From: an uncultured Eubacteriales bacterium
Lineage (GTDB): Bacteria > Bacillota > Clostridia > Oscillospirales > Acutalibacteraceae
NCBI GenBank assembly: GCA_934726435.1
Contig: CAKVDR010000001.1
Span: 1-45,482, forward strand
DNA length: 45,482 nt
Reading direction: 5' to 3'
The position numbers and the translations under genes are program-made. Numbering within the stretch: the first letter of the stretch is position 1; each line of letters starts with the position of its first letter. Below the pieces are notes generated by a model. It saw nothing but the letters and a program-made list of their open reading frames with translations, was not told where the DNA came from and did no database searches. Below are positions 8,752 through 39,144 of this stretch, piece by piece.

Positions 8752-11700
8752 TTGAAAACAACATTTGAAAAACTCTTTGAAAAACACATTCATATTGGTT
8801 TAGACAAGTCCATCCTTGATTCCACAGTTGAATCTTTAAGGGTGGACAAGCTTAAACTGCAACTAACCATTAACCTATCTTCGCCTGAAAAATTGCTCCC
8901 TGAAAACATAAAAAAAGCAGAGAATACCTTGCTTAATTCCCAGCTTGGATTAAAAGAAATAACTATAAATCAAACTATAAAAGAAAAAATCGAAGACTCA
9001 AGCCTTCAAAAGTTAATCGAAGATTGCGCAAAAGACTTCCCCTCAGCTTTAAAAGCTCTTAAAAACTTTTCCGCCGAAATAATCGGCAGCACTGCAAAAA
9101 TCACCCTTTGCGGCAAGGGCAAAGCTTTGCTTACAATCAAAGGAATTGACAAAAAAATCTCGGCGTGCCTTTCAAAAAAATTCGGTAAAGAAATAAAAAC
9201 CGAGTTCATTGAAACCGAAAACAAAAAGGCAAAAGAAGCCATAAATGATTATGCTCCAGCGCCGAAAGAAAAATCAAAAGAAGAAAAAATTGAAATTGAA
9301 ACTAAAAAAATAGAAATAAGAAAAAGCGGGGAATACACCCCCGAAGTTTGCCTCGAAACTTCAAAAGTAATTTACGGCAACAAAATTTCAGGGCAAATCA
9401 CACCAATCCGCGAAATAGATTCCCAGATGAAGTCTGCTATCATTTGGGGAGACATTTTTTTCATTGACAGCAGAGTAACAAAAGATAATCAAAAAATAAT
9501 TTGCTCAATTTACATAACCGATTACACGAGTTCAATAATACTAAAAATAATCGAAAGCAAAAACCTGGCTTCCTATATTGAAAAGTTAAAACCCGGCATG
9601 ACAGTTTTGGTAAGGGGTGAACTTTCAGAGGATACCTATGAAAAAGAAATTATTCTAAGGCCAAGAAGCATAAACGTCGTGAGCAAATATGAAATCACTG
9701 ACAACGCCCCGAAAAAAAGAGTTGAACTTCATCTTCACACGAATATGTCTTCAATGGATGGCATGACAAGCGCAACCGAACTCATCGAGAGGGCACATTC
9801 TTGGGGCCACAGCGCTATTGCAATAACCGACCACGGCGTGGCTCAGGCTTACCCCGAAGCGATGAACTGCGCAAACAAAATTAACAAATCAAGCGAAAAT
9901 AAAATAAAAATTCTTTATGGAACTGAAGCTTATTTCGTAAATGACATGCTTCCAATCGTGACGGGAAAAGACGAGCGAGTTTTCGAAGATGAATTCATTT
10001 GCTTCGACCTTGAAACCACCGGCCTTAACGCAAAACAAGATAAAATAATTGAAATCGGTGCGTTTAGAGTTAAAAACAAGGAAATTCTCGATGAATTTTC
10101 GCTCTTTGTTGATCCTAAAATGACAATTTCGGAAAAAACGACCGAACTCACAGGCATAACGAACGAAATGCTTGCAGGCGCGCCTGAAGAAAAAGAAGCG
10201 CTAGAAAAATTCATGGAATTCTGCGGCGATAACCCTGTTTTGGTCGCTCACAATGCTAATTTCGACGTTTCTTTCATAAAAGCAACCGCTGAAAAATACG
10301 GCATAAATTTCGATTTTAGTTACATCGACACTGTTCCATTTAGCCGTGCGCTGATAATGAGCATTAAAAATTACAAGCTCGATACAGTAGCGAAATTTTT
10401 GAAAATCCCGGAATTTAACCATCACAGAGCCTGCGATGACGCAAAGGCTTTGGCGCATATTTTCATTGCTTTGATAGACATTGCCGTGAAAGATAAAAAC
10501 ATCACGAATATCTCAGAAATTAACACGGCACTTTCTTCAACCGACGCTAAAAAAGCCTATTCTTACCACATGATAATCCTCGTGAAAAATCAAACTGGGC
10601 TTAAAAATCTTTACAAACTCATTTCTTTTGCGCATCTTAAATATTTTTACAAAAAGCCGAGAATTCCCAAAAGCGAGCTTATTAAATTTAGAGAAGGTTT
10701 GATAATCGGCAGTGCTTGTGAGGCAGGGGAGCTTTTCAGAGCTATTGTTGCTGGCAGACCTTGGAATGACCTTTTGGAAATTGCAAAATTTTATGATTAC
10801 CTTGAAATTCAGCCGCTCGGGAACAACGAATTCATGCTCAGAGAAGGCATGGTTAATTCCCGCAAAGAGCTTAAAGAATTCAACAAAACCGTGATTAAAC
10901 TCGGCGAAGAACTAAATATTCCCGTCGTTGCTACGTGCGACGTTCACTTCATGGACCCGCACCATGCAGAATACAGGAAAATCCTGCAAGCAGGCCAAGG
11001 CTACGACGATGCTGACAACCAAGCACCGCTTTATTTCAGAACTACCGCCGAAATGCTCGAGGAATTTTCTTATCTTGAAAAAGAAAAAGCCTATGAAATC
11101 GTGGTTGAAAACACCAACAAAATCGCCGAGAGCATTGAAGAAATTTCCCCGATTCCTCCCGGAGTTTTCCCGCCATTTATCGAAGGCGCGCAAGATGAAT
11201 TAATCAGCATAACAATGACCAGAGCAAAAGAAAAATACGGCGACCCACTGCCCGAAATAGTAGCCAAAAGGCTAGAAAAAGAACTCGGTTCCATCACGAA
11301 GCATGGCTTTTCGGTGCTTTACATGGTTGCTCAAAAGCTAGTTGCAGACTCCGAAAAACACGGCTACCTAGTTGGTTCAAGGGGTTCGGTAGGTTCTTCA
11401 TTCGTGGCAACGATTTCCGGCATCTCGGAAGTTAACCCATTGGTCCCGCACTATTTGTGCCCAAAATGCAAAAACTCGGAATTCATAACCGACGGAAGTT
11501 ACGGTTCAGGCTTTGACTTACCGCCGAAAAAATGCCCGAAATGCGGCACTGATTACCTCCAAGACGGGCATGATATTCCTTTTGAAACGTTCCTGGGTTT
11601 TGACGGCGATAAAACACCTGATATAGACCTTAACTTCTCGGGCGAATATCAGTCAAGAGCCCACAGATACACCGAAACAATCTTCGGGAAAGATAACGTT

Positions 11701-13119: not shown

Positions 13120-13148
13120 TTGACATTTCTTTTTACTGTGTATATAAT
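13120..13148 (+). promoter_or_regulatory. Consensus sigma-A promoter upstream of the first Nif11-leader peptide gene
   Basis: TTGACA (13120-13125), an exact 17-nt spacer, then TATAAT (13143-13148). An A-rich tract lies upstream. Confidence 0.7.
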
Positions 13149-13199
13149 CTAGAAATATGATCCTAGGTATAAAATAAAACAAAAAAGGTGGAATTAATT

Positions 13200-13529
13200 A
13201 TGAAAATTGAAAAAATTACTGAAGTAGTTAAAGATGAGGAATTTGCAAAAAGCATTATTGATATGAAATCTCCTGAAGAAGTTAAAGAAGCTTTTGCTAA
13301 AAAAGAAGTTGAAATTTCTTTAGATGAAGCACAAGTTATTATTTCAACCATAGAAAGAATGGTTAAAAAAGGTTCCGTTGAACTTTCAGAGAAAGACTTA
13401 GAAGAAATAGCAGGTGGCAGAACCCCCTCAATAAGTGAAAGACTTTCTTATTCATTGGCTGCGGCACTTGGAACAATAGTAGTGGCTTTATCTATCAAGA
13501 AAATGTATGATATTCGTAAAGAACGCTAA
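13200..13529 (+). CDS. Nif11-like leader / double-glycine precursor peptide P1 (73-aa leader plus 36-aa core)
   Basis: AAGGTGG RBS 8 nt before ATG 13200; the track start at 13188 is a GTG lying inside that RBS. The leader ends ELSEKDLEEIAGG. The core is RTPSISERLSYSLAAALGTIVVALSIKKMYDIRKER. Confidence 0.75.
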   Translation: MKIEKITEVVKDEEFAKSIIDMKSPEEVKEAFAKKEVEISLDEAQVIISTIERMVKKGSVELSEKDLEEIAGGRTPSISERLSYSLAAALGTIVVALSIKKMYDIRKER

Positions 13530-13858
13530 AAAATAGTACTTTCTTGCAAAAAAGAGAAAAATTTAAGAAATAATAATAATTTTAATTAACTCACTCAAAA
13601 CAATAAAAGCAGTTTTTGCTATCAAAGGAAGCAATCTTTTTCTAAAAGAGGCAAAGTCGTTAATTCCTACCATATGAAAAATAACTAATAAAGGTCTCTC
13701 TGAATTTTCAGCAGTAGACCTAAAATAAATTATACGGTGGTTATAGGGTTTATTAATTATTGCCAGCGCAGATTATAAAAAATTGCAAAAAATAAAAAAT
13801 GAAAAGAGTTAATAATATGTAATAACTAAGATATTAAATACAAGGGGGATTTACTACA

Positions 13859-14248
13859 ATGGAAAAAGAAGACATTTCAGAAGCAATGAAAGATATAAAA
13901 TTTGCCGAGAGCATAATGGACATGCAATCGCCCGAGAAAATTAAAAAAGCTTTTAAAGCAAAAGGAGTTGACCTTTCTTTGGAAGAATCACAAGTAGTAA
14001 TTTCCACGATTAAAAAAATTGATGAAAGTGAATCAGGCGAACTTTCAGAAAATGACCTACAAAAAATTGTGGGAGGAGTAGGGGAAAGCGAAAAAACAAG
14101 AGACCCTAAAATCGAAAAAATGGCGACGATTGCCACCGGTGTGGCAGTTGGAATGTTTGCTTATGAAACTTTTTCAAACGCAAAAAATTTAGTTTTTAGC
14201 GCAGGTGGAAAAATAGCAGATGCGATAATAAGAAAAATAAAAAAATAG
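13859..14248 (+). CDS. Nif11-like leader / double-glycine precursor peptide P2 (73-aa leader plus 56-aa core)
   Basis: AGGGGGA RBS. The leader ends ELSENDLQKIVGG. The core contains the hydrophobic helix MATIATGVAVGMFAY (a GxxxG motif) and the cationic tail KIADAIIRKIKK. Confidence 0.75.
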   Translation: MEKEDISEAMKDIKFAESIMDMQSPEKIKKAFKAKGVDLSLEESQVVISTIKKIDESESGELSENDLQKIVGGVGESEKTRDPKIEKMATIATGVAVGMFAYETFSNAKNLVFSAGGKIADAIIRKIKK

Positions 14249-14260
14249 GAGGAATTCAAA

Positions 14261-14689
14261 ATGGATAAACATCAAATGATGGAAGTTATGAGAGATGAGG
14301 ATTTTGTAAACGAAATTCTTGACATGCAAACAACTGAAGAAGTCCAAGAAGCTTTTGCTGAAAAAGGTATTGAAATTTCTTTGGAAGAATTTGATATAAT
14401 TTCTCAGATAATAAGTAAAATGGTTGATAAAAACACAACTGAACTTTCTGATGATGATTTAGCAGAGATTTCCGGTGGGTCTTTAGTTAGCGGTGGAAAA
14501 AAAGTTTTTAAAGACGTTGCAAATAGCTTCTCAAGCGCAAATGATGACACGACCAAACTAGGTTCAGCACTTGCGTACACTTCAATAGCCGTAGGTTTCA
14601 TTGCTACAGGAATTGCTGGAAAAATAATTTATGACAAAGGGAAAAAAGTAGTAAAATGGCTTAAAAACGGCTGTTCTTCAAAGAAATAA
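14261..14689 (+). CDS. Nif11-like leader / double-glycine precursor peptide P3 (73-aa leader plus 69-aa core)
   Basis: AGGAGG RBS, 12 nt after the P2 stop. The leader ends ELSDDDLAEISGG. The core contains SIAVGFIATGIAGKIIY (GxxxG) and the cationic tail KGKKVVKWLKNGCSSKK. Confidence 0.75.
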   Translation: MDKHQMMEVMRDEDFVNEILDMQTTEEVQEAFAEKGIEISLEEFDIISQIISKMVDKNTTELSDDDLAEISGGSLVSGGKKVFKDVANSFSSANDDTTKLGSALAYTSIAVGFIATGIAGKIIYDKGKKVVKWLKNGCSSKK

Positions 14690-14695
14690 AAAAAT

Positions 14696-14726
14696 TCCTC
14701 CGGTTTTTCCCGGAGGATAATTTATT
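14696..14726 (+). terminator. Rho-independent terminator after P3
   Basis: TCCTCCGG (14696-14703), a 6-nt loop, then CCGGAGGA (14710-14717), followed by a T-rich tract. Confidence 0.7.
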
Positions 14727-14825: not shown

Positions 14826-14861
14826 ATAAAAAAATTATCTCCGGTTAAAAAGCAACCGGAG
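14826..14861 (-). terminator. Rho-independent terminator for the minus-strand secreted-protein gene
   Basis: CTCCGGTT (14839-14846) pairs with AACCGGAG (14854-14861). On the minus strand a T-run follows the hairpin. Confidence 0.65.
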
Positions 14862-14906
14862 GTTTATTAATAAACATTAGAATATCTTAAGCTATAACTT
14901 AATTAA

Positions 14907-15752
14907 TTATTTTTTAAATCCTCTATTCTGTACATGAAATTTTTTATCTACTATTCCAAATTCTTTCAAAAGGCTATTATACTTTGCAATTTTATTAATA
15001 TTATAATTTACGATGTTTGGATTGCTAGAATCTTTTCTTACAGTACCTTGCGGGCGGAATTGGAATACTAATTGTTTTTCATTTTCAGAAGTGAAAACAA
15101 GATCTACTCCACCATAAGGATCGTCTTTTTTGACAAACACTGTTTCCGAATTCCAACCTGTTGCTTCGCAAACGCAGTTAAGTTGCAAAGCGAGTTCAAA
15201 TTGTTCACGTGTGAAAGTTCCCGCTTTATAGATTATTCTTTTTATACTGTCATTAGTAACTACATATGAGGACTCATCCATTGCATACGGATTTTCTTTA
15301 GGTTGGCTAGTCTTTTTTGTGATACCACTTCTAAAATATGTTCTAACAAAATTCAATTCTTTTCTAAGTTTATTATATTCAGGGAATGCCAAAGGTTTAT
15401 CCCCTTTGCTACTATCAACAAAACAAGTTTTTGCGTTAGGTGTGATTTTACCGTCATAAGGTTTTACAGGATTATAATTAAACATGTCAGGGATTTCTCT
15501 AAATCTTTTTCTTGCCATTGCAATCCTAACAAGATCTTCAGGAGTTTGAAAATATTTTGCAACAACCATCATACTATGTCTATCAAGGTGTCCTTTTTCA
15601 ATAATTTCTTTTTCGTCTGGTGCACAAGATACTGATTGCCCTTTTTCAATAACTTCTTTTTCGTCCGGTGCACAAAATCCTGATGGCATTGTTGAAAGAA
15701 TTCCAACAACAGAAAAAGCCATTGCCGTTGCTCTTTTAATAATTTTTTTCAT
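14907..15752 (-). CDS. Secreted protein of unknown function with a tandem CAPDEKE[VI]IEKG repeat after the signal peptide
   Basis: I place the start at MKKIIKRATAMAFSVVGILS, which has a GTGAGG RBS. It has an N-terminal signal peptide and I recognise no domain. Confidence 0.6.
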   Translation of the reverse strand: MKKIIKRATAMAFSVVGILSTMPSGFCAPDEKEVIEKGQSVSCAPDEKEIIEKGHLDRHSMMVVAKYFQTPEDLVRIAMARKRFREIPDMFNYNPVKPYDGKITPNAKTCFVDSSKGDKPLAFPEYNKLRKELNFVRTYFRSGITKKTSQPKENPYAMDESSYVVTNDSIKRIIYKAGTFTREQFELALQLNCVCEATGWNSETVFVKKDDPYGGVDLVFTSENEKQLVFQFRPQGTVRKDSSNPNIVNYNINKIAKYNSLLKEFGIVDKKFHVQNRGFKK

Positions 15753-15789
15753 TAAAACCAACCTCACTTTTTAATATTTTACAATTCAT

Positions 15790-38206: not shown

Positions 38207-38301
38207 TACAAAATTGAATGATAGTTATAGATATGTTAAAATAAGAATACAATTATTATAATGAAATAAATTTAAAGATGAGAGAAGGATGGCATTTATT
38301 T

Positions 38302-39144
38302 ATGAAAAGTAATAAGATTCTTAAACTTGGCTCATTGACTTTATCGTCAATGATTTTTTCTGTTTCTGCATTGCACCCCGTTTATGCAAGCCGCGTCCAC
38401 ACTAAAAAAGCGATATTTTCCGATTCAACCCCTTTGGCTAAACGCCTGGAAGAAGAAAGACAGGCAATGAAACCCCATAAAGAAAAAGAAACAGCTATTA
38501 ATTTGGATGATATATTCAACTTGGATGTAAATTCAAAAAAAGCGTTGAGGGTAGATCTGATCGGTCCTGTGCCGATTAATAAGTTTGAAATTTGCGAAAA
38601 GATTGAAAATCTTGAAGAGGAAATTTATGGTAAAAATATATTTACATTAAGAGAGTCGAAATGTTATAGAGGCGTTTTTCACATTGAGTTATGTACGGGC
38701 GTTTCTTTTAAAGGTTTTAAGGAGTGTTCTAGGTTGAATTCCTTTAAAATTTGTGTTCGAAAATTTTATGATAAACAGTTTATGCCACTTAACGTGTTAG
38801 TTTATTATTATGTTATAGATCTTTTACAAAAAATTGATGATAAAATTAATGCTCCGAAATTTTACCGTGATAAATTATGGCGGGAATGTCAAATGGATAA
38901 CATTATAGACAGGCTTCAATCAAGGAGGGAAAGTCTGAGTGATTTAGTTCGCAGGAGTAAAAATACTTTGACTTTGCAATTTAATTGTGGTGTTGAAAGC
39001 GTGATTGAATTTCTCTTTAAGATAAGGGATTTTTGCGAGCGCTGGGCGTTTGAAAATGATGCACTGTTGGAGGAAAGTTGTTTAAAAGATATAGACACTG
39101 CCATAGCAATACTTTGGTATATTGATCAAAGTATAATAGCGTAA
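38302..39144 (+). CDS. Secreted protein of unknown function (first gene of the secreted-protein island)
   Basis: I place the start at MKSNKILKLGSLTLSSMIFSVSALHPVYA-S. It has an RBS and a signal peptide, and I recognise no domain. Confidence 0.6.
   Translation: MKSNKILKLGSLTLSSMIFSVSALHPVYASRVHTKKAIFSDSTPLAKRLEEERQAMKPHKEKETAINLDDIFNLDVNSKKALRVDLIGPVPINKFEICEKIENLEEEIYGKNIFTLRESKCYRGVFHIELCTGVSFKGFKECSRLNSFKICVRKFYDKQFMPLNVLVYYYVIDLLQKIDDKINAPKFYRDKLWRECQMDNIIDRLQSRRESLSDLVRRSKNTLTLQFNCGVESVIEFLFKIRDFCERWAFENDALLEESCLKDIDTAIAILWYIDQSIIA

Follow-up and report, generated by a model that had tools for sequence, protein, structure and literature searches.

Peptide precursors with Nif11-like leaders that end in a double glycine (GG) and the class II bacteriocins are the described systems closest to the genes considered here. 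Precursors of the Nif11 and NHLP families can be encoded at a distance from the enzymes that process them (PMC2887384). For LahT, the recognition motif of the C39 peptidase domain lies within the last 13 leader residues; structural work places residues −4, −7 and −12 in a hydrophobic groove of the domain, and mutation of these residues abolishes cleavage (PMC6363468). Class IIb bacteriocins have double-glycine leaders of 15–30 residues, and an immunity gene is normally part of class II bacteriocin operons (PMC2850506). Here we analyse three tandem genes, P1, P2 and P3, in a 45,482-bp stretch of DNA (the window), which is a complete contig of a human-gut metagenome-assembled genome (MAG) from uncultured gut Clostridia. 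None of the three is annotated in any public source. We find that the array is an unannotated, divergent relative within the Nif11-like double-glycine precursor kind, and not a certified member of a curated subfamily. From the sequence we favour, with moderate confidence, P1–P3 being precursors that a Peptidase_C39 ABC transporter (PCAT) encoded elsewhere cleaves and exports, and whose products are bacteriocin-like.

All three genes lie on the plus strand. P1 (13200–13529) encodes a precursor of 109 amino acids (aa), with a 73-aa leader (13200–13418) and a 36-aa core (13419–13526, RTPSISERLSYSLAAALGTIVVALSIKKMYDIRKER). P2 (13859–14248) encodes 129 aa, divided into a 73-aa leader (13859–14077) and a 56-aa core containing GVAVG (14078–14245), and P3 (14261–14689), separated from P2 by 12 nt, encodes 142 aa with a 73-aa leader (14261–14479) and a 69-aa core (14480–14686). 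The first Gly-Gly stands at residues 72–73 in each protein. A first-pass annotation had described three paralogues with leaders and cores of these lengths and four shared leader motif blocks. All of this is in the sequence: the motif blocks match the three proteins on direct reading, and the leaders align without gaps over residues 1–73 with 23 invariant columns. When each peptide was searched against the window with tblastn, the pairs matched at E = 7e-21 (P1/P2), 7e-20 (P1/P3) and 1e-14 (P2/P3), so the three are paralogous and their likeness is not due to chance. The spacer between P1 and P2 holds a decayed fourth paralogue (about 13588–13734, plus strand), a relic of leader residues ∼23–71 that lacks a start codon and has two in-frame stops (its translation includes KAVFAIKGSNLFLKEAKSLIPTI-stop-KITNKGLSEFSAVDLK-stop). 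It was found by tblastn with family leaders at E values down to 2e-5.

The leaders had also been assigned at first pass to the Nif11-related layout of TIGR03798. Of this assignment the homology stands, by leader profile and transitive matches, but formal model membership does not. Against TIGR03798, a Nif11-like leader model with a curated cut-off of 32.3 bits, P1, P2 and P3 score 16.4, 19.3 and 22.9 bits (E = 8e-3, 1e-3 and 7.6e-5), all below the cut-off; the alignments cover model positions 11/12–68 and stop exactly at the GG in all three. The Pfam Nif11 model PF07862 matches none of the proteins even at E ≤ 10, and the Pfam matches that P1–P3 do return are at chance level (e.g., EF-hand_7 and NUP160). 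Because each protein falls below the TIGR03798 cut-off and lacks a PF07862 match, membership in the Nif11-like family rests on profile and transitive evidence. A profile built from the window leaders and searched against 1.84 billion protein representatives returned 1627 cluster representatives at E ≤ 1e-3, 210 of them at E ≤ 1e-10; all 1627 are short proteins with the leader match at the N-terminus. Of these relatives 140 were sampled, and 116/140 match TIGR03798 at E ≤ 1e-3. Two relatives that NCBI names Nif11-like leader peptide family precursors, P0094 and P0210, score 32.9 and 33.1 bits, both above the cut-off. The window-leader profile finds P0094 at E = 4e-14, and P0210 is found at E = 5e-18 by a wider family profile into which the window leaders also entered. 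On these sequence comparisons, the window leaders belong with the Nif11-like (TIGR03798) double-glycine leaders as divergent relatives that score below threshold.

Searches with other models and with structures gave weaker matches. NF038167 matches the leader end at E ∼0.02, over the GG region only, and a sequence search of the PDB with the leader profile returned only weak hits, including a ‘Nif11 domain-containing protein’ (9zn4_A, E = 0.14) and an NHLP leader (9cjx_A, E = 0.85). With the family alignment as input, AlphaFold models the P3 leader as a helical bundle (predicted local distance difference test, pLDDT, 82–93) and the core with low confidence (pLDDT 47–70); a Foldseek search of this P3 model against the PDB found nothing below E = 3. 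P3 has 15 homologues, in which the leader is near-invariant and the cores are variable. The leaders are acidic (net charge −7 in P1, −6 in P2 and −16 in P3), reach a maximum hydropathy of only ∼1.0 and have no N-terminal hydrophobic segment.

The end of the leader carries the C39 cleavage determinants. All three window peptides have L62 (−12), L67 (−7), I70 (−4), G72 and G73, and across 140 family members the glycines at −1 and −2 occur in 140/140, isoleucine or valine at −4 in 137, leucine at −7 in 135 and leucine at −12 in 128. A helix is predicted at P3 residues 64–70, directly before the GG (AlphaFold; block pLDDT 82). P1–P3 carry the residues that C39 peptidases recognise, in line with the double-glycine leader originally proposed, and from these residues we infer cleavage and export. 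A GlyGly-CTERM/rhombosortase-type sorting signal was considered, since GG, transmembrane helix and basic tail occur in this order, and was rejected: the proteins have no signal peptide, anything from 0 to ∼70 residues separates the GG from the hydrophobic helix in different family members, and the residues before the GG follow the C39 consensus.

The array occupies a conserved slot downstream of polC, in which its composition turns over among sister genomes. UMGS1703 (L005, an uncultured Ruminococcaceae) has the same three genes in the slot and a widespread sister species (L019–L023) has five or six paralogues, giving copy numbers of 3, 5 or 6. The sister species has intact extra paralogues where the window has the 13588–13734 relic. 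P2 has orthologues in L005 and L019, and its orthologue is present in 353 collection blocks. In L006, another Eubacteriales MAG, the slot downstream of polC holds a classical short-leader double-glycine peptide, MKFIELNESELSSVSGG (region 9540–10432). The slot also holds a long-leader gene whose second codon is a stop (ATG TAA at 9995–10000); the gene is a pseudogene or else has been misassembled. The P3 orthologues of the sister species (L019 10399–10890; P0004, P0006 and P0007) end at the C-terminus in runs of up to ∼15 Thr, poly-threonine tails that window P3 does not have.

Substitution patterns distinguish leader from core. Against the L005 orthologue, the ratio of nonsynonymous to synonymous substitution rates (dN/dS) is 0.15 in the P1 leader and 0.63 in its core. 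Against the L005 and L019 orthologues, it is 0.13–0.22 in the P2 leader and 0.20–0.23 in its core, and 0.05–0.06 in the P3 leader and 0.30–0.36 in its core. Since dN/dS is 0.05–0.22 in the leaders and 0.20–0.63 in the cores, P1–P3 are real genes with a conserved leader and a core that diverges faster and is still constrained. A conserved leader joined to a faster-evolving core is the usual pattern of bacteriocin precursors and of precursors of ribosomally synthesised, post-translationally modified peptides (RiPPs).

All three cores share a layout. Each consists of one hydrophobic 15-residue stretch (Kyte-Doolittle hydropathy 1.55–2.22) followed by a basic tail, which agrees with the hydrophobic helix and Lys/Arg-rich tail first described for them. 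The cores are cationic (net charge +4 in P1, +4 in P2 and +8 in P3; isoelectric points 9.7–10.2). A hydrophobic helix is present in 102/141 family cores, and 93 of these 102 have a basic segment downstream of it. Cysteine is nearly absent, as had been remarked: the P1 and P2 cores have none and the P3 core has one, and 100/141 family cores are without it. Lanthipeptide and sactipeptide chemistries were rejected for this lack of core Cys. Small-residue motifs occur in all three cores on direct reading, with a GxxxG motif in P2 (GVAVG) and small-xxx-small variants only in P1 (AAALG) and P3 (SIAVG and TGIAG). Against TIGR03949 (lactobin A/cerein 7B; cut-off 21.5 bits), P1 scores 15.7 bits, below the cut-off, and P2 and P3 have no match; a sister-species paralogue from the same array (L019 8264–8707) scores 24.0 bits and passes. 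We file the array as a divergent relative because the window peptides score below both the TIGR03798 and TIGR03949 cut-offs, and because they depart from the class IIb type, with leaders of 73 aa instead of 15–30 aa and no immunity gene in the operon.

Relatives with this type of leader divide by core length and genomic setting. Short-core members total about 100–115 aa and have cores of 28–43 aa, in which a hydrophobic stretch runs up to a terminal (R/K)(R/K)W. In three independent short-core clusters (L015, L016/L017 and L028/L029), 3–6 tandem precursors adjoin a 627–669-aa radical S-adenosylmethionine (rSAM)/SPASM enzyme, two membrane-fusion proteins and a PCAT, which agrees with the C39-peptidase ABC exporter named at first pass for this type of leader. 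These clusters (L015 9599–20306; L016 10001–20336; L028 10001–20324) also include a second ABC transporter, and have STAS, anti-sigma and ECF-sigma genes upstream. Their rSAM enzyme has an N-terminal extension of ∼300 aa and matches no NCBIfam equivalog, and the L015, L016 and L028 clusters may represent an uncharacterised RiPP class. The long-core members, to which P1–P3 belong, were examined in about 13 contexts (the window, L005, L006, L007, L010–12, L014, L019–24, L026 and L027). A metagenome scan returned 2 loci, neither with an exporter. Separately, a Treponema sp. MAG (L008 5980–9073) has a gene whose product joins a Nif11-like leader to a core of 10 aa (VPPDIAYYPW), and an open reading frame (ORF) of 968 aa comes immediately after it and overlaps it; this is likely a compact RiPP locus in a spirochaete.

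The reading we favour would run as follows. While in the cytoplasm, the hydrophobic, cationic core would be kept soluble and inactive by the acidic leader, folded into a helical bundle. A PCAT whose gene lies elsewhere in the genome would dock the short helix bearing L−12, L−7 and I−4 through its C39 domain, cut after G72-G73 and export what follows. Each peptide set free would present a hydrophobic helix rich in small residues and then a Lys/Arg tail; counted from residue 74 without modification, the masses would be 4038, 6003 and 7171 Da (about 4.0, 6.0 and 7.2 kDa). They would insert into target-cell membranes from outside, where the membrane potential may draw the cationic tail inward, and would act alone or in combination in a bacteriocin-like manner. 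In the model of lactococcin G alpha, the membrane potential pulls the cationic C-terminus across the membrane of the target (PMC2850506), and the helix and cationic tail of the window cores resemble the layout proposed for it.

Several observations weigh against processing by a distant PCAT and a bacteriocin-like role. To the sub-threshold TIGR03798 scores and the missing PF07862 match we add the gene content of the contig: Pfam searches of the larger ORFs reveal no ABC transporter, C39 peptidase, rSAM enzyme or LanM in its 45,482 bp, and the contig is likewise free of accessory, immunity and maturase genes, even though class II operons normally include an immunity gene. In none of the contexts examined, moreover, does a long-core member lie within 10 kb of a gene for an exporter, a maturase or immunity; clustering with exporters is seen only among short-core members. 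Finally, conservation over the first ∼58 residues of the leader exceeds what recognition by a PCAT alone needs.

This last point bears on the strongest of the competing explanations, which we regard as possible but on the doubtful side: that P1–P3 are true RiPP precursors, whose long leader is bound by a distant maturase that modifies the Cys-free core before PCAT cleavage. The maturase could be an rSAM/SPASM enzyme, as beside the short-core relatives, or an epimerase. Purifying selection acts across the whole 73-aa leader, against the ∼13 residues that the C39 domain needs (PMC6363468), and this hints at an additional leader-binding partner beyond that domain. Such a second partner would argue against ‘unmodified’ cores. 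The confident prediction of a well-folded leader bundle fits this explanation as well, as do the pairing of the leader type with the rSAM/SPASM enzyme in three independent clusters of relatives and the fact that members of the Nif11 and NHLP families typically serve as substrates for maturases, with precursors that may lie far from the enzymes (PMC2887384). Yet no maturase is encoded in the contig or within 10 kb of any long-core context, and the window cores lack both Cys and the (R/K)(R/K)W signature with which the cores of the rSAM-associated relatives end. At 36–69 aa, with a transmembrane-like helix, they instead resemble unmodified class II peptides.

A further reading is that the long-core branch is a distinct, undescribed class of gut-Clostridia peptides with a biology unlike that of classical bacteriocins, which we consider unlikely. 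The branch comprises dozens to hundreds of clusters at 50% identity, and its members begin with a Nif11-like folded domain that leads to the GG, after which come a variable linker, a single transmembrane helix and a basic tail. Under this reading the peptides could be cargo of a single distant PCAT, delivered into the producer’s own or a neighbour’s membranes without a dedicated immunity gene, or the conserved leader domain could have its own partner or a function beyond export.

We judge it quite unlikely that P1–P3 are uncleaved single-pass membrane proteins, in which a Nif11-like helical domain sits on a C-terminal transmembrane helix and serves a housekeeping or regulatory role in the producer. 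In the contexts examined, long-core members are always orphans among housekeeping genes (polC, rpsO, ribosomal genes and spoVT) with no transporter near, the promoter is strong and of constitutive type, the N-terminal domain is highly conserved and confidently folded in prediction, and the hydrophobic helix and basic tail are near-universal in the family, all of which such proteins would explain. A mere linker, however, would leave unexplained why the two glycines are the only invariant columns in 140 relatives and why positions −4, −7 and −12 are kept at 91–98%, and the same leader type lies beside C39 exporters in relatives. The basic C-terminal tail moreover predicts an N-out topology, which would need an acidic domain of 73–120 aa to be translocated without a signal peptide, and hypervariable cores, copy-number turnover and a pseudogene suit antagonism genes better than housekeeping ones. 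It is highly improbable that the peptides are PCAT-exported signals (ComC/BlpC-like pheromones) and not toxins: although double-glycine export is common to pheromones and bacteriocins and the leader end gives weak partial ComC-model matches (E = 0.03–0.12), these matches span the GG motif only and fall far below the cut-off, the array adjoins neither a histidine kinase nor a response regulator, cores of 36–69 aa with a transmembrane-like helix are unlike the known pheromones of 17–30 aa, and three to six divergent paralogues per locus are atypical for a signal.

The expression signals of the array are compact. A sigma-70-type promoter (13120–13148, plus strand) combines TTGACA (13120–13125), a 17-nt spacer and TATAAT (13143–13148), with 12/12 consensus matches. 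It is the sole strong plus-strand promoter-like site upstream of P1–P3 in a consensus scan. Ribosome-binding sites AAGGTGG, AGGGGGA and AGGAGG lie 8–9 nt upstream of the P1, P2 and P3 ATGs, so that the perfect promoter and strong ribosome-binding sites of the first-pass annotation are both confirmed. Downstream of P3, the scan finds a bidirectional intrinsic-terminator-like hairpin of 8 pairs, 6 of them G-C (14696–14717, plus strand), and a second terminator hairpin at 14837–14863. Because no plus-strand terminator-like site was found between P1 and P3 and hairpins occur only after P3, the three genes are probably one operon transcribed from the 13120 promoter. No further plus-strand ORF of at least 30 aa lies between promoter and terminator, and hence no immunity gene is encoded there.

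The contig is a replication-origin region in which only housekeeping genes are recognised (Pfam, essentially all larger window ORFs). Its gene order runs pyrH (UMP kinase), frr, uppS, cdsA, dxr, rseP, ispG, polC and the peptide array; then a secreted protein, an M23 peptidase, spoVT, gpmI, tpiA, gyrA, gyrB, recF, dnaN and dnaA; and finally rnpA, yidC, mnmE, mnmG, rsmG and serS. The convergent neighbour of the array (14907–15767, minus strand) encodes a protein of 286 aa that has a signal peptide, carries the motif CAPDEKE[VI]IEKG in duplicate and matches no Pfam model. Its positional counterpart in sister genomes is 582–621 aa long, and in this lineage the M23 peptidase gene always comes next after that position. 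The secreted protein and the peptidase were considered as partners of the array and dropped, as their adjacency is kept only in the window, L005 and L019–L024; because it is absent in other family contexts, we take it as synteny.

Two further features lie towards the contig end. Seven tandem paralogues (39854–43476, plus strand, and also 38278–39827) encode small secreted proteins with a common signal peptide (MKK.KLNAVIASILSLG..CSGS.FAS), none with a Pfam match; a 312-aa member contains a 12-nt tandem repeat of the KDKx type at 40249–40596. A lone 5S rRNA gene (44590–44706, minus strand) has no adjoining 23S gene (region 43957–45482) and is flanked by a 295-nt repeat of 86% identity (43957–44251 and 44914–45208). 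A perfect 77-nt repeat at 44482–44558 recurs at the contig end (45406–45482). A unit of secreted-protein gene and 5S gene looks to have been tandemly duplicated, with the assembly break inside the unit.

P1–P3 fall under the curated thresholds used for automatic annotation, though one orthologue group spans hundreds of human-gut assemblies. If the peptides are indeed exported and active, uncultured gut Clostridia would have in them an unmined set of antimicrobial peptides that are Cys-free and probably simple in their chemistry. The sharp split between short-core members clustered with exporters and long-core members that are always orphans also raises a concrete question that can be checked, namely by what route Nif11-type precursors are serviced in Firmicutes with small genomes.

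Among described systems, the N11P/TIGR03798 precursors (the ProcA prochlorosins and the LahT-processed LahA1–9 of Lachnospiraceae) are likewise built from a helical leader of ∼70 aa ending LSxxDLxxIxGG, with docking residues at −4, −7 and −12. They too come as several paralogues, in which hypervariable cores follow a conserved leader, and can sit away from their enzymes. The window peptides differ in scoring below the cut-off without a Pfam Nif11 match, in their long, Cys-poor cores (one Cys, in P3) with a transmembrane-like helix and Lys/Arg tail, and in having no LanM, rSAM enzyme or PCAT nearby. The class IIb/IId bacteriocins (lactococcin G, plantaricins and lactobin A/cerein 7B) resemble the array in their GG cleavage motif, adjacent genes in one operon, cationic helical mature part, cationic C-terminal tail and, perhaps, GxxxG-like small-residue motifs, and it is a sister-species paralogue in the same array that passes TIGR03949, which the window peptides do not. 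The window leader, however, is 73 aa compared with 15–30, no immunity, transporter or accessory gene is near, and the cores are longer (up to 69 aa).

The cyanobacterial bacteriocins with Nif11/NHLP leaders (Wang et al. 2011, PMC3140520; ‘CTB family’ NF038167/PF28158) likewise join a Nif11-type leader to a GG, and we count as a further likeness that their cores are often Gly/Ala-rich and unmodified. They belong to another phylum and have other core sequences, the window matches to them are weak (E ∼0.02) and confined to the GG region, and their genes are usually clustered with PCAT/HlyD genes. The array can also be compared with the rSAM/SPASM and PCAT clusters (L015, L016 and L028). Their cores are 28–43 aa long with a C-terminal Trp signature, and they adjoin an rSAM enzyme, two membrane-fusion proteins and a PCAT, none of which accompanies the window array. 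Both nonetheless belong to a common leader family (E ∼1e-14 to 1e-18), occur as tandem paralogues and join that leader to a hydrophobic core followed by basic residues.

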